Shown here one piece after another: positions 1-28,159 of a stretch of DNA of 32,000 nucleotides. Position 1 is the first letter of the stretch, and each line of letters begins with the position of its first letter. This stretch comes from Thermofilum pendens Hrk 5 (GTDB lineage Archaea > Thermoproteota > Thermoprotei > Thermofilales > Thermofilaceae). The position numbers were made by a program, and so were the translations under genes. Under the pieces are notes generated by a model. It saw nothing but the letters and a program-made list of their open reading frames with translations, made no database searches and was not told where the DNA came from. The stretch spans positions 480,001 through 512,000 of the forward strand of contig NC_008698.1 of the NCBI RefSeq assembly GCF_000015225.1, in the 5' to 3' direction.

Positions 1-619
1 TATTCAGGTTCTCCTCCGAGAAACCCGCTGAGCGTAGAAAGTCGACATCCCCTTTGAGGCTTCTCATTTCGTCGAGGATAGGTTTCGCGGTTATGGCTCG
101 TGCGAGCTTCTCAACGGCGTCTATGCCGAGCAACCTGTCTAAAACCCTGCTTCTAACGCTTTGACTCCCGTGCGCGAGTAAAAACAGCGTTACGTAGTTT
201 ATCGAAACACTGCGGGAAAACTCGAAGAAGTCCATCCCCAGAAGCTCCTCTACTTTCTCCAGTACCTTTGAAGACTCTCTCAGAATACCCCCGTCCGGGA
301 GCAGAACCTCCACTCTCTCCCTGCCCTCCTTCGAAAGTCTCCTCTCGATCCTGTAAACTCCTTCACCCTCCACTTCTAATTCGAGTAGAACCCTGAGAGA
401 CGCTGACGCCGAGTTAACTAGGTCCTTCTTCGTGTAGACCCTTCTCTCGATGTAGGAGTCGGTCCCGTACAGGGCATACTCTACTGCCGATAAAAGGCTA
501 CTCTTACCCGAGCCAACAGGCCCGGCAATGACTGTTACTCCGTCTCCAAACTCGACGCGAAAAGGATCTTTAAAGAACCTGTAACCCTCAACCTCCACCC
601 TCCGCAGGAGTACAACCAC
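1..619 (-). CDS. SMC/Rad50-like P-loop ATPase, N-terminal part; the gene runs off the window start. Its position matches arcadin-4 of the crenactin cluster.
   Basis: The minus-strand frame is open from 619 to position 1. Translation: VVVLLRRVEVEGYRFFKDPFRVEFGDGVTVIAGPVGSGKSSLLSAVEYALYGTDSY, an SMC/Rad50-type N-terminus with a Walker A motif. Start is GTG 619 (alternative GTG 598), overlapping the stop of the upstream 73-aa ORF. Confidence 0.7.
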   Translation of the reverse strand, partial: MVVLLRRVEVEGYRFFKDPFRVEFGDGVTVIAGPVGSGKSSLLSAVEYALYGTDSYIERRVYTKKDLVNSASASLRVLLELEVEGEGVYRIERRLSKEGRERVEVLLPDGGILRESSKVLEKVEELLGMDFFEFSRSVSINYVTLFLLAHGSQSVRSRVLDRLLGIDAVEKLARAITAKPILDEMRSLKGDVDFLRSAGFSEENLN

Positions 620-1628: not shown

Positions 1629-2921
1629 CTAGTAGTGGACCCCTCTCTTGTACCAGCCTTCACGCCTCTTCCAGTCCCACTCTACGTCCTCGGGTACCGC
1701 TATGCTGTAAACGATCGTACCCTTCCAGACGGAGTATAAGGGGTCTGAGACCAACCTCACGTTGCTTTCAATGCCGAGCCTCTTAAGCTCCAAAGCGACC
1801 TTCGTAGCACTATCGACCGCGACGTCCTCAAGTCCCTGGGGGACCTTCCAGGCGAAGTTCCCTCCGCTCAGAATTATGTCCTTGTAGAGTGCCGGCTGTA
1901 GCTCAGTGCTAGTCCTTGAAACCGAGTGGGTAATTGCCTGTACCAGCGGCATGGTGCCCCTCACTCTCTCGCCGCCCACCACCGTGTCCTTGGGCCTGGG
2001 CATGCCTCTCTTGTAGTAGCTCTCGAAGATTTCATGTTCAGGGTTGAAGATTATCTCTCCTATTAGGAACCTCGCCCACCCCATGTTACCCATATCCACT
2101 TGGATGACCGTTCCAGGAATGCTGAAAACAGTCCTGAACCTCTCCGGCTCCCTCCTAGCCTTCTCTATAGCCTGGTTTAGGTCCCGCGGAATTAGCCCCA
2201 CGGCTTCCTTAAATTGCCGCACAAACTTCTCTTCCCTGGCTCTATCCTCGTACCCAAGGTCCCTCAGAATCTCAGCCGCTATAGCGTCCGCCTCCGCTCC
2301 TCCCCTATTAAGCGCCACTATCGCGTTGCGTATAGGGTACATCGAGATGGGAGTTATCTGGGTGTTCCCGTGCCCCGACTCCACGACGACACAGGTAACC
2401 GTTTTCTCTGCGATAGCCACTGCTAGGGGTTGCGGTATAATCGTAACTGCCTTTACGACCTTCTCCTCTGCGTCAAGCCTCGCGTGAATTTCGAAGATAC
2501 GCTGATACATGTAGTCCGGGGCTATGGCGGAAAGCGCCGCCGTTACGAAGAAGCCGTCGAAATCCTTAGCCTTAGGCTTCGTAGTCTCGAAGCCATACCG
2601 CGTGATCTCGTAGAGAACTCTCCACGCGCGCTCGTCGTCCTTTTCGACAAGGCCGTCGCGCATAGGGTAGACCAGGTACCTACCCACGTCGTCTATACTT
2701 CCAAGGTACTTCGGAAGCTCCGGGCCCACGACGACCTCCTTCCTTACTCCAAATATGTCGAGCAAAAGCCTCGATTCTCCGGCGAGAAGCAGGCCCCTGT
2801 TATCTATGACTAGAGGCTTCTCGGCTACGGGACCGAACTTAAACTGGCTAGTACCGTAGTCCTCGCCGTAAGCGTACTTCCTCTTATACTCACTTATAGC
2901 CAAACCCGCCACCATGCACAA
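1629..2921 (-). CDS. cren-1: Crenactin (archaeal actin homologue)
   Basis: 430 aa. There is collinear similarity to Pyrobaculum crenactin as I remember it (YGxDxGTS...FGP, DDExAWRVL, ALSAxAPDYMY, IxPQPLAVAIAE, ESGHGNxQ, ALNRGGAEA, RFLIGEIxFxPxHE, ILSGGxFxW, RLVSxPxYSVWxG). The start could be M1 (2921) or M3 (2915). Confidence 0.9.
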   Translation of the reverse strand: MCMVAGLAISEYKRKYAYGEDYGTSQFKFGPVAEKPLVIDNRGLLLAGESRLLLDIFGVRKEVVVGPELPKYLGSIDDVGRYLVYPMRDGLVEKDDERAWRVLYEITRYGFETTKPKAKDFDGFFVTAALSAIAPDYMYQRIFEIHARLDAEEKVVKAVTIIPQPLAVAIAEKTVTCVVVESGHGNTQITPISMYPIRNAIVALNRGGAEADAIAAEILRDLGYEDRAREEKFVRQFKEAVGLIPRDLNQAIEKARREPERFRTVFSIPGTVIQVDMGNMGWARFLIGEIIFNPEHEIFESYYKRGMPRPKDTVVGGERVRGTMPLVQAITHSVSRTSTELQPALYKDIILSGGNFAWKVPQGLEDVAVDSATKVALELKRLGIESNVRLVSDPLYSVWKGTIVYSIAVPEDVEWDWKRREGWYKRGVHY

Positions 2922-3016
2922 GAGACCTAAAAGACTAAAAAACCCAGCGATCGCGCGCGATGCTCGTAACCGTCCGCGTCCACCTCACATGTGTAAAAGC
3001 TACTCCCCTAATACGC

Positions 3017-3046
3017 GGAGGGGGCCGGGCGCCTTTTCCTGCTGGT
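3017..3046 (-). repeat. Cassette 3' trailer element, copy A (ACCAGCAGGAAAAGGCGCCCGGCCCCCTCC on the minus strand)
   Basis: Lies 10 nt after the stop of the 3057-4565 ORF. It matches 20757-20787, 28060-28089 and the first 20 nt of 16397-16416. Confidence 0.8.
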
Positions 3047-3056
3047 CTTACCTCTT

Positions 3057-4565
3057 TTATTCTTGTGCCCCAGCTGGTTTAATTCTTAGCAGTTCTTCAA
3101 CCAGTTTGCGCGCAACGGGCTTAGCCTGCGCCTTTGCAACTGCGAAGCGGTAGAGTGCCTCCCAGAGTGTTGCATCCTCCGCCGCGTGCTCAAACAGAGA
3201 ACTTTGAGGAATTTCGTAGTAGAGCATCTCGCGCGTCGTGTGCGCGCGTGACTTGACGCGTGACCTGACAACCTTCACAGTCCACCCCTCCTCTACTGCG
3301 CGCTGGTACCAGCCTTGAGGCGCACTGTCAACGGGTATACGGGCGTATATGTAGGCGTACTTGCCGCCAACGGCAACCATAACGAGGTTAAGCAACGCTC
3401 CTGCCACCGGCGCGTAGAGGCCGAGCTCCTGGTAAGACCCCACTTTCTGTCCGGGTTTCCTACCCCTCTTACCCGGCGCTCCGTAGGCCACGAACAAGAT
3501 ATGCCTAACCTTCGCGCAACGCGTAACCTTGCCCACAAATGCTACGTATTCGCTGGCCCGTTCGACAGCAACGCGCGCGTTAAAGACAGCGCTCTCCGTC
3601 GGCAAGTAGACGTGCTCATGTCCAACCCTGAAGTAGAGCCATCGAAGCCTTAGAAAGTATTCGAGCTCGCCGTCCCCCAGGAAAGCGGTCGCCAGCGCCA
3701 CCGAGTCGCCGTTGAGCTCCTTGCACTCCTCTACGAGCCGGCGGAACTCTGCACGTTTAACCTCGCCGATAAGCCCTGAAGCCCAGCCTAGCTCCTCCTC
3801 GTAGCCGTAGATACTCACTCCCCACTGAAGGCTCAGCCTGGTGCTACCGAGAATACCCGCCGTGACACCGAGCCTGACATCGTCGCTTGGAAAGGCCGCG
3901 AGCGTCGATGGCAACTGCCAAGCCTGGGTAGTGCCGAAGGAGACGTAAGGATATCCTTCATGCGGCGGAGTGACGTCTGTGAGTAGCCACCCTCGTTGCA
4001 GGCTCCTAAGAACATCACTCGGAGTATTCACGAGAACCCTGGGAAACTCTGACTCGGTCCAGAAGCCTTTCAACGGGATGCGCACGACCCAGCGCGCAGG
4101 CTTGCTCACGACGACGTACCAGTTCTCGCGCGGCACGTACACGCGCCAGTGCCTTCCGTGCCTCTCAGCTCTAAGACCGTCCTCGGTAGCGTCGACGATT
4201 GCTTGTAGCCTTCCTCTGAGCTCCGTCACCGCGCTTCCCTCTCTCGGCCTGTTGTCATCGCTTAGCAAGAGGTACTTCCTCGCGTCGCTGTCGATGAAGC
4301 GGTAAAACCTCGGGTAGACTTCGTCCGGCACTACGCTCAGCGCGTGCGCCGCAAACCTGGTAAAGTCCCAGTTAATTTCGGTCACAGCATCATGCAGGCC
4401 GCGGTAGTGTATCTCGCCCCTCTTCTTCTTACCCCTGGACCTCCTCTTATCCTCCGTCCTGGTGGTGTAGAGGCTTAAAGCCGCACGCCTCCAAACCTCC
4501 TCCCTAACAACCTTCTCGACCTCCTCCCCCGCCGCTCCATTTCCCCTCATGTACTCTTCACCCAT
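3057..4565 (-). CDS. Large cassette protein, copy A (502 aa), a divergent paralogue of 19337-20755 and 26636-28054; function unknown
   Basis: Long ORF with motifs collinear to copies B/C: MRGNGAAGE vs MRGDGAGEG, RHWRVYV vs RRWRLYV, LQRGWLLTDVT vs AQDGWILGDAS, GTTQAWQL vs GTAQTWQV, LSLQWGVSIYG vs VSIMWQVRVHG, ATAFLGDGE vs ATYYAADGK. It has the same leader and trailer DNA. Confidence 0.8.
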   Translation of the reverse strand: MGEEYMRGNGAAGEEVEKVVREEVWRRAALSLYTTRTEDKRRSRGKKKRGEIHYRGLHDAVTEINWDFTRFAAHALSVVPDEVYPRFYRFIDSDARKYLLLSDDNRPREGSAVTELRGRLQAIVDATEDGLRAERHGRHWRVYVPRENWYVVVSKPARWVVRIPLKGFWTESEFPRVLVNTPSDVLRSLQRGWLLTDVTPPHEGYPYVSFGTTQAWQLPSTLAAFPSDDVRLGVTAGILGSTRLSLQWGVSIYGYEEELGWASGLIGEVKRAEFRRLVEECKELNGDSVALATAFLGDGELEYFLRLRWLYFRVGHEHVYLPTESAVFNARVAVERASEYVAFVGKVTRCAKVRHILFVAYGAPGKRGRKPGQKVGSYQELGLYAPVAGALLNLVMVAVGGKYAYIYARIPVDSAPQGWYQRAVEEGWTVKVVRSRVKSRAHTTREMLYYEIPQSSLFEHAAEDATLWEALYRFAVAKAQAKPVARKLVEELLRIKPAGAQE

Positions 4566-4652
4566 ACTACCACCCCTCCTTAAATGGTGGAGGGGGCGCC
4601 CTGCGAGGGCGCGGCATCAGGGGTCAGCGTGGAGGGAGAGGCCGGGAAAGAG
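4566..4652 (-). promoter_or_regulatory. Conserved cassette leader, copy A (palindrome GCGCCC-TCGCA-GGGCGC, then CCACCATTTAAGGAGGGGTGGTAG directly before the ATG)
   Basis: About 84% identical by eye over about 88 nt to 19248-19336. The proximal about 50 nt is also shared with 26585-26635. Confidence 0.75.
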
Positions 4653-4664
4653 TGTTGACCGAGC

Positions 4665-4895
4665 ATGAGTGACCCGAGGGTTACCGTGCGAACGATAGGC
4701 ACGTTGTCGAGGCTACTGGCGAGCACTCTTAGGCGTGACGGGCTGTACGAGGCTAGGCTCGTCGAAGCATTAGACGCAGTAGAGGAGTTCCTAGCCTCCG
4801 TGAGAGGCGCGACCCCGCGCATCGAGGAGGACGAAAAGCTGGCAAGAGAGCTGGAGGAGGACATCGAGGGGCTGAGAGGGCTAGGGCTAGTATAA
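4665..4895 (+). CDS. Small cassette protein, copy A (76 aa, helical, acidic C-terminal half), divergent from the large ORF
   Basis: ORF track. It has a close homologue without a start codon at 18824-19040 (minus strand) and a distant one at 26394-26618. A T-rich tract follows the stop. Confidence 0.6.
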   Translation: MSDPRVTVRTIGTLSRLLASTLRRDGLYEARLVEALDAVEEFLASVRGATPRIEEDEKLARELEEDIEGLRGLGLV

Positions 4896-4970
4896 AAATC
4901 CTTCTTCTTTTTCCTCTTCTCGCGAGCGCAAGGTTTTTACGGAGAGCCATAGCTATTCGCGCGGACATGT

Positions 4971-5378
4971 ATGAGCGAGACAATAGAAGTAGTCCTCGAA
5001 AGGTTTGGTTCAAAAGTGGCGCTCCTAGAGCTGTACGAGAGCCAGATACCACTCAACTTTGCCAACATCTCAAAGCTAAGCCAGGTAATCACGACAGCTA
5101 AGAGGCTCGGATCCCTAGTACTGCTGAGCATACCGGCTCAGCTTAGACCGGAGGGGACGATTATGACCTCCTTGAAGGCTGGAGAAGTGGTCGTAGTCCC
5201 AGTTGCCCGCTCGCTCGGCGTAGTGATAACCGATGTAGAAGCATTACCCCTAGAATCCTACAAGGCAGGAATCGTAAAAACGGGGTTAGAGAACCTCCGA
5301 GGACTGCGCGAAGGAACCATACTCAACGCGAAATTCTCCCTTAAGCAACTCGAGGAACCTCAACGACAACAATCTTAA
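4971..5378 (+). CDS. Hypothetical protein (135 aa)
   Basis: ORF track with coding-like composition. I am confident of no family signature; a cyclophilin-like small archaeal fold is only a guess. Confidence 0.55.
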   Translation: MSETIEVVLERFGSKVALLELYESQIPLNFANISKLSQVITTAKRLGSLVLLSIPAQLRPEGTIMTSLKAGEVVVVPVARSLGVVITDVEALPLESYKAGIVKTGLENLRGLREGTILNAKFSLKQLEEPQRQQS

Positions 5379-5402
5379 AAGTGCGCGAGCACTTCCTGCC
5401 AC

Positions 5403-5789
5403 GTGGCAAGCGAAGAAGTCAGGGTTGAGCCAATTCTAGCCGTGAAGCTTGCCTCGATCAACGACCTGGCTAGGCTGGCTAGCAGTGCGTCAACCATGGG
5501 ACACGTGACCTACGTGGTGCACTTTGCGGAAACACCTGAAAGGCACATCTACGGTATATTCATCGTCTTCAGGGATTACTACAAGCTCTACGGTCTCCCG
5601 ATGTTCTACTACATAGAGAGTAAAGAGGAGCTCAGGGGGAACTACATCCTCTTTAGGTCGGACGATTCCGGCGAGCAAGTGGAGGTATCTAAAGGCGCCA
5701 AGCCGGGCTACATAGCCATACCTATAGTCAACCTCGCCGGAAGAATCCCGATAGTAGCTTTAGGGGAAGTTAGACAGAAACAAAGCTAG
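5403..5789 (+). CDS. Hypothetical protein (128 aa, GTG start)
   Basis: ORF track. It is same-strand and 24 nt after the previous ORF. No recognised signature. Confidence 0.55.
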   Translation: MASEEVRVEPILAVKLASINDLARLASSASTMGHVTYVVHFAETPERHIYGIFIVFRDYYKLYGLPMFYYIESKEELRGNYILFRSDDSGEQVEVSKGAKPGYIAIPIVNLAGRIPIVALGEVRQKQS

Positions 5790-10974: not shown

Positions 10975-11034
10975 ATTAAAAATTTACGTAGATAATGATA
11001 TAAATTTGTTTGCCGAAAAATTGGCGAGAATGTT

Positions 11035-16350: not shown

Positions 16351-16396
16351 CGCGCAAGCCTAGTCGCGCGCGGAACTAGGACGATTAAAGCGGAAA

Positions 16397-16416
16397 ACCA
16401 GCAGGAAAAGGCGCCC
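16397..16416 (+). repeat. Solo copy of the cassette 3' trailer (ACCAGCAGGAAAAGGCGCCC)
   Basis: 20/20 identical to the minus-strand reading of 3027-3046, with no adjacent cassette ORF. Confidence 0.7.
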
Positions 16417-16476
16417 AACAGCTCCTTTGCACGCGCGAAGTACCTGTTCTACACGCACCAGGATCGCGAAAACATA

Positions 16477-18767: not shown

Positions 18768-18823
18768 AAGCGCCCACGTTTACAAACCAGGGAAAAAGGA
18801 AGAAAGGAATAAAAAGGGGGTTT

Positions 18824-19040
18824 TTATGCCAGCCCTAGCCCTCTCAGCTCTTCGACGTCCTCCTCCAGCTCCCTTGCTAACTCCTCGTCTTCCTCGACTC
18901 TCGCCGGAGCGCTTCTCACGGAGGCTAGGAACTCCTCTATCGCGTCCAACGCCTCTACCAGCCTAGCCTCGTAGAGCCCGTCACCCTTAAGAGTGCTCGC
19001 CAAGAGCCTCGAGAGAGCGCCGATAGTCCTAACGATAACG
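18824..19040 (-). pseudogene. Small cassette protein, copy B: 5'-truncated, with no start codon
   Basis: The minus-strand translation ...RVIVRTIGALSRLLASTLKGDGLYEARLVEALDAIEEFLASVRSAPARVEEDEELARELEEDVEELRGLGLA* is about 80% identical to 4665-4895. The frame has no in-frame ATG/GTG/TTG upstream of the homologous region, and homology ends at the GCGCGCGCG tract near 19041-19049. Confidence 0.6.
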
Positions 19041-19247
19041 CGCGCGCGGGTTCTTTGACAACGACGGCGTTGAGGAGGTGTTTTTGTGGCTTTTGGACAA
19101 GTTGCCCAGCGTGAAACACTACACCTTCGAGTACAGCTTACCTCCGAACCTGCGCGCCTCTTTTGAGAAAATAGTGCACGAGATACTGCTCGCCTAAGTT
19201 AGAGTCCTAAACCCCCAGCCTGAAAAGTATCTTTTTTTGCCGCCCCC

Positions 19248-19336
19248 CTCTTTCCCCGGTCCCTCCCTCTACGCTGACCCCTGATCGCGCGCCCGAATAG
19301 GGCGCCCACCCCACCATTTAAGGAGGGGTGGTAGGT
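19248..19336 (+). promoter_or_regulatory. Conserved cassette leader, copy B
   Basis: CTCTTTCCCCGGTCCCTCCCTCTACGCTGACCCCTGATCGCGCGCCCGAATAGGGCGCCCACCCCACCATTTAAGGAGGGGTGGTAGGT followed by ATG. The palindrome GCGCCC-GAATA-GGGCGC is at 19289-19305. Confidence 0.75.
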
Positions 19337-20755
19337 ATGAATGAAGTAGTAATGAGGGGGGATGGAGCGGGGGAGGGGGTTGAAGAGTTCGACGAGTGGT
19401 TTATTCGCAGGAAGATCGAGGAGCTCCTGAGGAAGGCGCTGTTTCCGCCCAGCGGCTATAGGGGTCTAAAGGCTACGCACAGCAAGGTTGCACGGGAGCT
19501 AGCAGAAATAAAGGCCAACTATGTGCAATACGGCGAGGCCTACGTCGAGCACGTCGACAGGCTCAGGGAAGGCGAGGAGAAGGCCTACAGAGAGGCGGAG
19601 AAAGCGATGCAAGAAGCCTTAGAGCACGCAGACGAACTCGAAATCAAGAGAACAGGGAAGACGACGTGGAAGGCTAAGCTCCCAGGCAGGAGATGGAGGC
19701 TATACGTTTGCAGAACACCAACCGGGCACTGGCAGGTCGAGGTCGCCCTTCTCTTCAAGGTCGCCGAGCTCAGGCTATCCGATACATTAAGGCTTCCGCC
19801 TGAGCTACTCAGAGCGGCCCAGGATGGCTGGATTCTTGGCGATGCGTCGTACATCGCAAACAAGAAAGAAGTCAAGATGGGTACAGCGCAGACGTGGCAG
19901 GTTGCCTCCTTTCCCGGTTTCTGGCCGGGAAAGGAGGTAGTGATCTACGTTAGAAGCGTAGTGATCCACGAGTCTCACGTCAGCATAATGTGGCAAGTGA
20001 GAGTACACGGGGTTCGCGACGTGCCCCGATGGTGGAGGCTAAGGAAGGAGGAGAAGCGGAGGATGGCAGTCGCCGAGATTGAGGAGGCAAACAAGGGCAA
20101 TATAGATGAGCGAAGAGCCGTTCGGATCGCAACGTACTACGCCGCAGACGGAAAGTATCCAGGATCAAACTCGGCCCTCCATTATCTGGATTTCGCGGTT
20201 GGCCGAAGATCTCGCCGAGTTAGAACGGAGCAATCCGTCAGGGTTGCGAGGCTTCTCTACGAGAAAGTGCCGCAACTATTAGCATTCATGGTCGCGTCGG
20301 GTTGCAAGAAAGCAGAGTTCTTAGCGAGCCTGGCATCCGTGAAGCCGCGACACTACGCGCCTCGCTACCTGGAGGTGTGCGGTGTTAAAATGAACCTGCG
20401 GCTCGCAGGCCCTAAGAACCGCCGCTACCTTATGGCCCAAGTATACATCACGCGCAATAACGAGGAGATGCTTCGCGATTTCCCCGAGAGGGCGAGGCGC
20501 GAGGGTCTAGAAGTCAGAAGGGTGAAGGTGAGTAAGAGGTATTGGGGTTACCGTGCTGGCGAAAAATCGCTAATGAAGTATGCTGACCGATATCCGCACG
20601 TCTACGACACTTTGATCGAGTTTGTCCAAGAAGAACTTCAAGCAACGCCTCCCGACCACCCCGCCCGCCGAAGCATAGAGCGCCTCTTGGAACGCCTAAG
20701 GAAGGCGAAGGAGGAAGCGCTCAAAAAGCTGGGGCACCAAGACGCTAAAGCATGA
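19337..20755 (+). CDS. Large cassette protein, copy B (472 aa from ATG 19337); function unknown
   Basis: Roughly two-thirds identical by eye to copy C along its whole length. ATG 19337 aligns with the starts of copies A and C; the ORF-track GTG at 19328 lies inside the conserved leader. Confidence 0.85.
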   Translation: MNEVVMRGDGAGEGVEEFDEWFIRRKIEELLRKALFPPSGYRGLKATHSKVARELAEIKANYVQYGEAYVEHVDRLREGEEKAYREAEKAMQEALEHADELEIKRTGKTTWKAKLPGRRWRLYVCRTPTGHWQVEVALLFKVAELRLSDTLRLPPELLRAAQDGWILGDASYIANKKEVKMGTAQTWQVASFPGFWPGKEVVIYVRSVVIHESHVSIMWQVRVHGVRDVPRWWRLRKEEKRRMAVAEIEEANKGNIDERRAVRIATYYAADGKYPGSNSALHYLDFAVGRRSRRVRTEQSVRVARLLYEKVPQLLAFMVASGCKKAEFLASLASVKPRHYAPRYLEVCGVKMNLRLAGPKNRRYLMAQVYITRNNEEMLRDFPERARREGLEVRRVKVSKRYWGYRAGEKSLMKYADRYPHVYDTLIEFVQEELQATPPDHPARRSIERLLERLRKAKEEALKKLGHQDAKA

Positions 20756-20756
20756 A

Positions 20757-20787
20757 ACCAACAGGGAAAGGCGCCCGGCCCCCCTCC
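20757..20787 (+). repeat. Cassette 3' trailer element, copy B (ACCAACAGGGAAAGGCGCCCGGCCCCCCTCC)
   Basis: Starts 1 nt after the stop codon and matches copies A and C. Confidence 0.8.
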
Positions 20788-20825
20788 TCATTAAAGTACT
20801 CGTGAAGCTCGCGCGCTCGCGCCGG

Positions 20826-26393: not shown

Positions 26394-26618
26394 CTATTCT
26401 CTCAGCTTTTCAAGCGCCCTTACCGTCGCCAGGGCTACCTCGTCCTCGGGGTAGAAGACCTTGACCTCGTCCACGCGGAAGCGCTCCACGAAGGCCCAGA
26501 CGAATGCCGCGATGAGCTTCCCCAGGAACTCGGCGTCGCTGCTCGCCTCAAGCCTCGCCACACCCCTGGCTTTGAAGGTCGCGGTTGCGCGCCCGCAGAG
26601 GGCGCCCCTTTCCACCAT
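26394..26618 (-). CDS. Small cassette protein, copy C (divergent; start uncertain)
   Basis: It occupies the same divergent position as 4665-4895, with weak collinear similarity (ARLEASSDAEFLGK vs ARLVEALDAVEEFLAS; PEDE...LEKLRE vs EEDE...IEGLRG) and a similar 3' flank (GGCTGGCGTAAAAAAC vs GGCTGGCATAAAAAC). The ATG at 26618 lies inside the large gene's leader, so the true start may be internal (for example the GTG of VARLE). Confidence 0.35.
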   Translation of the reverse strand: MVERGALCGRATATFKARGVARLEASSDAEFLGKLIAAFVWAFVERFRVDEVKVFYPEDEVALATVRALEKLRE

Positions 26619-26635
26619 TTAAGGAGGGGTTAAGT
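26585..26635 (+). promoter_or_regulatory. Conserved cassette leader, copy C (proximal part only)
   Basis: Palindrome GCGCCC-GCAGA-GGGCGC at 26589-26605, then CCACCATTTAAGGAGGGG and ATG 26636. The distal leader seen in copies A and B is absent. Confidence 0.7.
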
Positions 26636-28054
26636 ATGGGTAGGGAAATGATGGGGTATGGGACTGTGGCAGGAGGGGTCGAAGAGTTCGACGAGGAGTT
26701 CGTCCGCGGGAAGCTTAAAGAGCTTCTAGAGAAAGCGTTGTTTCCGCGCGGCAACTATAGGGGGCTCAAAGCTACTCACGAGCAGGTTGCGCGGGAGCTA
26801 GCAGAAATAAAGGCCAACTATGCGCAATACGGCGAGGCCTACGTTGAATACGTTGGCAGGCTCGGGGAAGGCGAGGAGAAGGCGTTCAGAGAGGCGGAGA
26901 AAGCGATGAGGGAAGCCCTGAAGCGTGTAGACGAACTCAAGATCAAGAGAACAGGGAAGACACGGTGGAAGGCGAAGCTCTCCGGTGCGAAGTGGAGGCT
27001 CTACGTGCACTTGAAGCAAAGCGGATACTGGAGTGTTGAGGTTCGCTTGTACATCAGGGTCGCTAAGCTAAGGCTTCCCGATACCCTGAGGATTCCACCC
27101 GAGCTACTCAGAGTAGCGCAGGAGGGTTGGGTCCTGGGCGATGCTAGCTACGACGCAGACCGCGGAGAAGTTAAGATGAGTACTTCGCAGAGCTGGCAGG
27201 TTGCCTCCTTCCCTGGTTTCTGGCCGGAAAAGGATGTAACCATCTGCGTTAAAAGCGTAGTGATCAACGAGACAAGAGTCAGCGTTACGTGGTACGTGGT
27301 TGTTAAGGGTGTTCGCGATGCGCCTCGCTTGTGGAGCCTCCCCAAAGTGGTGAAACAGAGGATCATCTTGAAGGAGATAGGAGGGGCGAACGAAGGAAAA
27401 GTCGACATCGTCAGGGCGCTAAAGCTTGCACTGCTATACGCCGCTGATGGGGAGTATCCAGGGCCAAACTCGGCTAAACACGTACTGGAATTCGCAGTCG
27501 GCCGAAGATCTCGCCAAGTTAGAACTGGGGGCTCGGTCAGGATTGCGAGGCTTCTATACAAGGAGGTACCGCAACTCTTAGCATACATGGTTGCGTCGGG
27601 CTGCAAGAAAGCAGAGTTCTTAGCTAGCCTGGCATTCGTGGAGCCCCGCCCGTACCGCCTCTCGCTGCGGTACTTGGAAGTCGCCGGCGTACGGATGAAC
27701 CTGCAACTCGTAGGCAATAAGAACTACTACACTCTTGCGGCGCGAGTGTATATAACCGAGGATAACGAGGAGATGCTTCGCGATTTCCCTGAGAGAGCGA
27801 GGAAAGAGGGTCTTGTAGTTAAAAAGATGAAGATAGCCAAGAAATACTACTGCTACTACGCCGGTATGCGGGAGCTGACGGGGTACTGCGATAAACACCC
27901 GGAGGCCTACAACACCCTGATCGACTTTGTTCAAGAAGAGCTTGAAACAATGCCTCTAGACCACCCTGCCCGCCGAAGCGTAGAGCGTCTCTTGGAACGC
28001 CTAAGGAAGGCGCGAGAAAGAGCGCTTAAAAAGCTGGGGGCAAGGCAGGAATAG
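26636..28054 (+). CDS. Large cassette protein, copy C (472 aa from ATG 26636); function unknown
   Basis: Paralogue of 19337-20755. The ORF-track TTG at 26585 would translate the conserved leader, so ATG 26636 is preferred by alignment with copies A and B. Confidence 0.85.
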   Translation: MGREMMGYGTVAGGVEEFDEEFVRGKLKELLEKALFPRGNYRGLKATHEQVARELAEIKANYAQYGEAYVEYVGRLGEGEEKAFREAEKAMREALKRVDELKIKRTGKTRWKAKLSGAKWRLYVHLKQSGYWSVEVRLYIRVAKLRLPDTLRIPPELLRVAQEGWVLGDASYDADRGEVKMSTSQSWQVASFPGFWPEKDVTICVKSVVINETRVSVTWYVVVKGVRDAPRLWSLPKVVKQRIILKEIGGANEGKVDIVRALKLALLYAADGEYPGPNSAKHVLEFAVGRRSRQVRTGGSVRIARLLYKEVPQLLAYMVASGCKKAEFLASLAFVEPRPYRLSLRYLEVAGVRMNLQLVGNKNYYTLAARVYITEDNEEMLRDFPERARKEGLVVKKMKIAKKYYCYYAGMRELTGYCDKHPEAYNTLIDFVQEELETMPLDHPARRSVERLLERLRKARERALKKLGARQE

Positions 28055-28059
28055 GGTAA

Positions 28060-28089
28060 ACCACCAGGGAAAGGCGCCCGGCCCCCTCC
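28060..28089 (+). repeat. Cassette 3' trailer element, copy C (ACCACCAGGGAAAGGCGCCCGGCCCCCTCC)
   Basis: Starts 5 nt after the stop codon and matches copies A and B. Confidence 0.8.
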
Positions 28090-28159
28090 TCATGCGCGAT
28101 GCGCGCACAATCGCGAATAATCAAAGATTTATTCATGGCGGCGTGTCTAGCTATCTGGG

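Follow-up and report, generated by a model that had tools for sequence, protein, structure and literature searches.

The window analysed here, a stretch of 32,000 nucleotides (nt) of the archaeon Thermofilum pendens Hrk 5 (contig NC_008698.1, positions 480,001 to 512,000), contained three copies (A, B and C) of a T. pendens-specific two-gene module, and the non-coding ends of this module diverged far less than the synonymous sites of the genes beside them. The module was composed of a small gene of 68–76 amino acids (aa), a control region of 75–100 nt from which transcription diverges in both directions, a large open reading frame (ORF) of about 480 aa and a trailer of about 35 nt. About 15 copies were present per genome, and they were inserted between housekeeping genes. 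The conserved ends are best explained, in our view with slightly better than even confidence, as the shared promoter/operator and the 3′ boundary of a repeated, recombining module.

In module A, the control region (4566–4664, minus strand) lay between the divergent small and large genes. Large ORF A (3057–4565, minus strand; 502 aa as listed) was followed immediately past its stop codon by the conserved trailer (3015–3056, minus strand), and small ORF A (4665–4895, plus strand) encoded 76 aa. The leaders and trailers of the other copies were located by repeat searches and alignment. In module B, the leader (19252–19336), large ORF (19337–20755) and trailer (20756–20790) were on the plus strand, and the small ORF (18824–19044) was on the minus strand. 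Copy C, which the sequence-only reading of this DNA had missed, consisted of a leader core (26589–26635), also found by pattern search, a large ORF (26636–28054) and a trailer (28055–28090), all on the plus strand. Its ORF was 67% identical to that of B in aa and about 82% in nt, and it shared the leader over the proximal ~45 nt only, plus the trailer.

The sequence-only reading had judged by eye that the leader of A was about 84% identical to that of B, and the inverted-repeat search gave a close value, 86% over 83 nt (4567–4649 against 19252–19334). The trailers of A and B, which it had described as matching, were 93% identical over 27 nt; the values were 85% over 40 nt for A and C and 97% over 29 nt for B and C. 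The large ORFs of A and B, which it had found strongly diverged, were homologous at 25% aa identity (expectation value, E, 4e-19). When A was compared with B in a sliding window, the leader reached an identity of 0.76–0.82 and the trailer 0.70, and the ORF body stayed at about 0.4, which is chance level. The 19-mer CCACCATTTAAGGAGGGGT occurred exactly three times in the window against 0.02 expected, and a trailer 17-mer occurred three times against 0.2 expected. The claim that the ends are better conserved than the protein they flank held only across the deep split between A-type and B/C-type ORFs; for the B–C pair it failed, and the ORF was better conserved than most of the upstream DNA. Moreover, the similarity between A and B extended beyond the leader at 81% through the divergent small ORF (227 nt; 4675–4901 against 18818–19044). 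In B, an insertion of about 205 nt (19045–19250), evident as a gap in the A/B alignment, separated the small ORF from the leader; its G+C content was lower.

The divergence of the ends was compared with that of synonymous sites. For small ORF A versus B, the ratio of nonsynonymous to synonymous divergence (dN/dS) was 0.18 and the proportion of synonymous differences (pS) was 0.46. For large ORF B versus C, these values were 0.30 and 0.50, whereas pS for large ORF A versus B was 0.70, that is, saturated. The dN/dS ratios of 0.18 and 0.30 indicate that both genes are real coding genes. Across the 83 nt leader, A and B differed at 14% of positions, a value lower than that of the synonymous sites in the neighbouring gene at a distance of 13 nt (p 5e-5). 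The 42 nt leader core differed at 10–15% of positions among A, B and C, and the trailer at 3–7% (A–B and B–C); the Fisher p values for core and trailer against synonymous divergence ranged from 1e-3 to 1e-11. Because the synonymous sites of the flanking genes differed by 46–70%, the core was under selection, and the earlier suggestion that the ends are under strong functional constraint was borne out for the leader core and the trailer.

Two copies from outside the window, both on short contigs, were added to the comparison. L003 (ENA metagenome) and L004 (Logan) each carried the small ORF, the leader and the start of the large ORF, which was A-type in L003 and B/C-type in L004. In the alignment of the five copies, 29 of the 42 core positions were invariant, with the pattern CGCCC-N5-GGCGCCC-N4-5-CCACCATTTAAGGA-NN-GGT. 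Substitutions were limited to the 5 nt loop of a dyad, a spacer of 3–4 nt and a purine tract. This block pattern, the presence of the core beside both ORF types and its survival in other datasets point to site-specific constraint rather than to one recent conversion tract.

The dyad, GCGCCC-N5-GGGCGC, had three matches in the window against 0.27 expected, and all of them were in leaders (A, 4596–4612; B, 19289–19305; C, 26589–26605). Its half-sites were invariant in A, B, C and L003, and L004 carried one change in each; four versions of the loop (TCGCA, GAATA, GCAGA and TCGCG) were seen in the five copies. The TATA-like box CCACCATTTAAGGA (A, 4577–4590, minus strand; B, 19311–19324; C, 26612–26625) was identical in all five copies. 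Its ATTTAA part started at −20 from the first ATG and at −35 from a second in-frame ATG. Of the other window genes in which a box could be recognised, most had an AT-rich box that began between about −28 and −38; measured from the second ATG, the AT-rich box of the leader core is thus spaced as is typical of this genome. A purine-rich B recognition element was not evident at the leader box. Scans for bacterial-type promoters and terminators, which are unsuited to archaea, gave no match. A reference for the spacing between TATA box and ATG was available elsewhere in the window, where a very AT-rich stretch of 60 nt (10975–11034) between the divergent genes for an aminotransferase and the gamma subunit of pyruvate:ferredoxin oxidoreductase resembled a classic bidirectional promoter. 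The simplest reading of the leader core is an archaeal TATA box with a dyad operator just upstream. The box was quasi-symmetric and no other AT-rich element was present between the two genes, so it may serve the small gene as well, and the dyad would then lie near the transcription start of that gene.

The second ATG was located at +16 in A (position 4550), B (19352), C and L004. In L003, a contig of low coverage that contains a stop in frame, it was at +19. The first ATG was replaced by ATT in L004, and a Met at codon 4–7 was near-universal among the proteins of the large family. The second ATG is the probable start codon of the large gene, which would correct the present annotation. Two Hrk 5 entries, P0005 (Tpen_0646, 708 aa) and P0006 (Tpen_0892, 556 aa), were extended at the N-terminus across the control region and the antisense strand of the small ORF, and their starts are probably mis-annotated. 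The back-read of P0006 showed the PPFKE (CCACCATTTAAGGAG) core. A short ORF on the opposite strand, starting from a conserved ATGGTGG, was judged not to be real, as its frame and peptide varied among copies. Upstream of C, where a small ORF would be expected, an unrelated ORF of 74 aa (26394–26618, minus strand) started at the ATG in CCACCAT, which is ATGGTGG on the other strand; it had no family match. No homologue of the small ORF was present upstream of C, and tblastn revealed no third small ORF in the window.

At the other end of the large gene, the trailer consensus read from the stop codon on was A[AG]ACCA-N-CAGG[AG]AAAGGCGCCCGGCCCCCTCC. Its sense strand had no T-run and no structure, and its opposite strand showed a G+C-rich block followed by TTT(T)CC. 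The DNA similarity began about 25 nt inside the 3′ end of the ORF and spanned different reading frames. The last ~25 nt of the three ORFs (3060–3085, 20725–20755 and 28025–28054) shared the string AAA.AGCTGGGGCA(C)CAAG, which indels had placed in different frames of A, B and C; hence, this string was conserved as DNA and not as protein. The trailer is proposed to be a boundary of the module at the DNA level, and it may act as a terminator or insulator against antisense read-in or as a recombination or target site. At the left end of the module, T-runs were present in A, B, L003 and L004. In A, the T-rich, terminator-like stretch downstream of the small ORF covered 4896–4930 (plus strand), and the similarity to B continued for ~20–30 nt beyond the stop codon.

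A short purine-rich direct repeat, AAACCAG(N2-3)GGAAAAG, was observed past the stop codon of the small ORF (left end), in the trailer (right end) and at a solo site. The sites of this end repeat were 18783–18823 and 20757–20775 in the window, about 375–395 in L004 and about 440–470 in L003, and the match was marginal, with p 0.003–0.007 in 3 of 16 comparisons. The solo site, AAACCAGCAGGAAAAGGCGCCC (16395–16423, plus strand), was recovered as a direct-repeat match and by alignment in the gap between the SpoU-methylase and L10e genes. It matched trailer A at 22 of 23 positions, and no ORF of the family was close by; the site may be a target that is empty, a footprint of excision or a relic.

Neither the large nor the small proteins of the window matched a family in Pfam, NCBIfam, PHROGs or PADLOC, libraries that include defence-system and phage families. 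The AlphaFold2 model of large ORF A, built on an alignment of 36 sequences, had a mean local confidence (pLDDT) of 86 and a predicted template-modelling score (pTM) of 0.69. In the Foldseek comparison with viral models (BFVD), the top two matches were LAGLIDADG endonucleases (E 7.7e-4 and 9.4e-4, probability 0.99–1.0), and many more appeared lower down. Against the PDB, I-SceI, I-WcaI, bI3 maturase, WhiA and PI-SceI were among the best matches, with probabilities up to 0.90 (0.84–0.90 for the first three) but E values of at least 0.045. An earlier, low-confidence model of the large protein had matched the same fold families. Only eight residues were invariant in the alignment of the 36 family members, including G192-W193...D197 and D298-G299. 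These two motifs were 101 residues apart, and each was located at or just past a helix end. The same spacing of 101 residues separates D44 and D145 in I-SceI. Two LAGLIDADG-type motifs, each with an acidic residue at its end, were thus recognised: motif 2 reads LLTxxLGDG, and motif 1 is degenerate (GWxxxD). In hhalign, motif 2 aligned with the genuine LAGLIDADG motifs of I-SceI and I-DmoI, without significance. The core of the large protein is probably LAGLIDADG-like on the evidence of the model, and the fold matches suggest a double domain; nuclease activity would be consistent with such a core.

The small protein was basic in its N half (isoelectric point 11.3) and acidic in its C half (4.2), and its status as a gene was supported by homologues as well as by dN/dS. 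Small ORF B, identical to Tpen_0550 (P0102), had no ATG, GTG or TTG before codon 18; the database versions were 59 aa (Tpen_0550) or 70 aa long. A ribbon-helix-helix regulator was considered for the small protein and found unsupported, with no match by hhalign against CopG and Arc or in Pfam at E≤10. The type II toxin-antitoxin arrangement was also rejected, as the genes are divergent and do not form an operon, and no toxin-antitoxin, defence or phage family was matched.

The distribution of the module was explored with several searches. Large ORF A was 100% identical to a T. pendens hypothetical protein, and a word-indexed search returned 13 further T. pendens homologues; some of these 14 large proteins are probably alternative annotations of one gene. 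A profile built from the wide alignment found the same 14 in the word-indexed database and added none. The small ORF had 17 homologues that were 59–88% identical, of which 16 were annotated in T. pendens and one came from an ENA metagenome contig. In the full HMMER scan, the large ORF had distant relatives in Pyrobaculum, Vulcanisaeta, Infirmifilum and metagenomes of hot springs. These relatives had no small-ORF partner; T. pendens-type sequences were the only ones in which the small gene and the conserved leader and trailer were observed. In a Vulcanisaeta metagenome-assembled genome (L005), distant members of the large family were located at 3–479 (minus strand) and 3977–5473 (plus strand); as the two were within 4 kb, occurrence in multiple copies was not confined to Thermofilum. 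Scans for DNA patterns in collections of genomes, metagenomes and viruses gave no further copies of the module. In the window, the modules were neighboured by genes for crenactin, L10e, S26e, RNA methyltransferases, Nep1 and pelota. An actin-family (crenactin-like) gene (1629–2921, minus strand) followed trailer A at a distance of 100 nt and had the same orientation, with its own AT-rich promoter box after the trailer.

The scattering of the copies between unrelated housekeeping genes would also be expected if the conserved ends were the functional ends or the target of a mobile element, which homes or inserts at a specific site that is either recognised or cut by the LAGLIDADG-like protein or duplicated as an att-like core on insertion. 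The site would be the trailer and perhaps also a portion of the leader or of the left end. The predicted endonuclease-like fold with its invariant acidic residues is consistent with this alternative, which we consider unlikely, and so are the trailer-like sequence at 16395–16423 in an unrelated intergenic region and the 3′-end similarity across reading frames. Another point in its favour is the occurrence of AAACCAG..GGAAAAG at both module ends; however, this repeat is short and purine-rich and is marginal after multiple testing. The module contained no integrase or transposase and no terminal inverted repeats, and DNA pattern scans together with tblastn against plasmids and phages found no relatives in viral, plasmid and phage collections. 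Furthermore, homing leaves the invariant TATA-like box and dyad at a promoter-typical distance unexplained. A conventional insertion sequence or transposon was rejected, since neither ORF has a transposase or integrase domain and the inverted similarity between leader and trailer was at chance.

The sequence-only reading had offered, as its other option, that ORF bodies were exchanged between conserved ends, and a segment-wise identity table revealed such exchange. P0013 and P0014 were B-type over residues 1–365 (50–73% identical to B and about 26% to A) and A-type over residues 383–502 (69–85% to A and about 25% to B). P0005–P0012 were A-type over the first 300 residues and carried a third C-terminal type, 36–61% identical to A. 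P0002 joined the first 17 residues of B to an A-type body. The main breakpoint coincided with the low-confidence linker of the model (364–381). The ORFs are, by these alignments, mosaics of two or three deeply diverged types, which indicates that recombination between copies has been frequent.

Such recombination, clear in P0002, P0013 and P0014, may alternatively account for the ends themselves. In this explanation, the similarity of the ends would be purely historical: recent conversion or recombination would have placed near-identical ends beside old ORF types, and the non-coding sequence would be unselected. The similarity between A and B formed one long block that covered the small ORF, the leader and the first ~12 codons of the large ORF, and the distal leader was common to A and B only, and in part to L003. 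Within this same block, however, the synonymous sites of the small ORF differed by 46% and the leader by 14%, with the core alone reaching p 1e-3. The differences in the core clustered in loop and spacer instead of being spread evenly, and the core was intact in two other datasets beside both ORF types. The trailers of B and C were 97% identical against 50% synonymous divergence of their ORFs. A purely historical origin is therefore regarded as quite improbable.

A further proposal, highly speculative and held with little confidence, combines recombination and cutting. The roughly 15 modules would be self-diversifying, free-standing LAGLIDADG-type endonuclease genes, the enzymes of which cut their paralogues at a site in the constant ends, be it the trailer, the dyad or the solo site (16395–16423). 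Repair from other copies would produce the mosaics and occasional ectopic spread, and the small protein would be a regulator or inhibitor. This would be homing within an archaeal genome, from paralogue to paralogue, in which the conserved leader and trailer would act as sites of control and of recombination alike.

That leader and trailer act as RNA, either through a two-hairpin 5′ untranslated region affecting translation or stability or through 5′–3′ pairing of GGAGGGG with CCCCCTCC, is very improbable. The sequence-only reading had pointed to the complementarity between CCCCCTCC in the trailer and GGAGGGG in the leader and to GGCGCCC at both ends. Complementarity and likeness were at chance level in both orientations (p 0.02–0.4), which leaves the suggested 5′–3′ RNA pairing unsupported. 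RNAalifold predicted two hairpins, adjacent to each other in leaders A and B, but only one of 17 pairs showed a double change, and the covariation term was unfavourable (+1.64); compensatory changes were lacking, and predicted pairs, namely those of hairpin 2, were broken in L003 and L004. The strand directed toward the small ORF folded somewhat better than its shuffles (z −2.6), whereas on the sense strand the three leaders had z-scores of −1.3, −1.3 and +0.3, and the trailers, which were unstructured, had z-scores of +0.4 or more. No Rfam family or tRNA was matched in the leader. GGAGG is placed at Shine-Dalgarno distance from the first ATG, yet conservation within the core was lowest in the purine tract (GGAGGGG, GGACGGG and GGAAAGG), and if TTTAA is the TATA box, GGAGGGG is outside the mRNA of the large gene. 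A structured cis-regulatory RNA was rejected for want of covariation, unusual stability and an Rfam match. Repeats between leader and trailer, direct or inverted, were not significant, and for this reason the reading of the trailer as a second, degenerate leader was rejected as well.

Several points weigh against a shared promoter/operator and 3′ boundary. The comparison drew on the leaders of five copies and on three to four trailers. C, L003 and L004 lacked the distal ~25 nt that the leaders of A and B have in common, and the conservation of this part may reflect recent common ancestry and not constraint. The box could lie in the 5′ untranslated region, in which case GGAGG would be a Shine-Dalgarno sequence 9–10 nt before the first ATG. 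The Hrk 5 copy Tpen_0646 seemed to be without the TTTAA box, as judged at the protein level from its read-through annotation. The mechanisms proposed for the trailer are candidates. As for the proteins, Pfam LAGLIDADG models matched 0 of 36 family members at E≤1, and a PDB profile search gave no LAGLIDADG chain at E≤10; the assignment to this fold draws on structural matches of borderline significance. The small protein had no known DNA-binding fold in Pfam and PDB profile searches.

With these points taken into account, the shared promoter/operator and 3′ boundary is still the explanation that we favour, and the following mechanism is proposed for it. The TATA-like box CCACCATTTAAGGA would drive a leaderless or short-leader mRNA in which translation starts at the second ATG, which is conserved. 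Located about 20 nt upstream of this box, the dyad is most likely the operator for a factor common to all copies, and an obvious candidate for this factor is the small helical protein of the module itself. If all copies answer to the same trans-acting machinery, their cis sites would be held constant by purifying selection. The ORFs have split into deeply diverged types and have been reshuffled repeatedly by recombination between copies. The constant ends may have served as homology anchors for this recombination and may have been homogenised by it.

With the exception of a few distant relatives, the family was confined to one archaeal species, in which it made up roughly 1.5–2% of the genome. 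If the proposed mechanism is true, the modules would provide a natural test bed for an archaeal promoter/operator, in which one 42 nt core drives about 15 loci. They would also be a clear example of how the paralogues of a hyperthermophile recombine in modules, and the large proteins would form a new, highly divergent LAGLIDADG-like branch with extra domains. If the ends were nuclease or recombination targets, the module would represent a selfish element of a new kind in archaea.

The module was compared with four known systems. Free-standing LAGLIDADG homing endonuclease genes (monomeric, double-motif enzymes such as I-SceI) resemble it in the best-matching predicted core fold and in being free-standing, intergenic and multi-copy. 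The module protein differs from them in having no Pfam match, a degenerate motif 1, and extra regions of ~180 aa at the N-terminus and ~120 aa at the C-terminus. The gene is outside any intron or intein, and a conserved small gene accompanies it together with a conserved, putative promoter/operator; about 15 paralogues in one genome are also unusual for such genes.

The paREP families of Pyrobaculum (e.g., PaREP2b) have been termed ‘putative transposons’ (PMC3558965). Like the module family, they are lineage-specific, multi-copy ORFs of the Thermoproteales that have no assigned function and are tied to genome plasticity. PaREP2b (PF07775) gave a single sub-threshold match, to the distant relative P0028 (16.4 bits against a cut-off of 20.4, E 0.0035); the window proteins A, B and C and 35 of the 36 family members had no match to it even at E≤1.

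Divergent pairs of a regulator and its target with a shared operator have in common with the module a short intergenic region, a single quasi-symmetric TATA-like box, an adjoining dyad and a promoter-typical distance. In the module, by contrast, this arrangement was repeated about 15 times per genome, and neither product had a recognisable DNA-binding domain beyond the predicted LAGLIDADG-like core. Cassette-type families with segmental gene conversion also have constant 5′ and 3′ ends around alternative, diverged and mosaic ORF segments. They differ from the module, each copy of which apparently has its own promoter, so that there is no single expression site with silent donors; evidence of programmed switching was absent from the module, and its host is a free-living hyperthermophile. 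The family itself is undescribed, and the phenomenon combines known kinds: a repeated module, selfish or paralogous, with cis-regulatory ends that are conserved, recombination of segments and, possibly, a free-standing LAGLIDADG gene.

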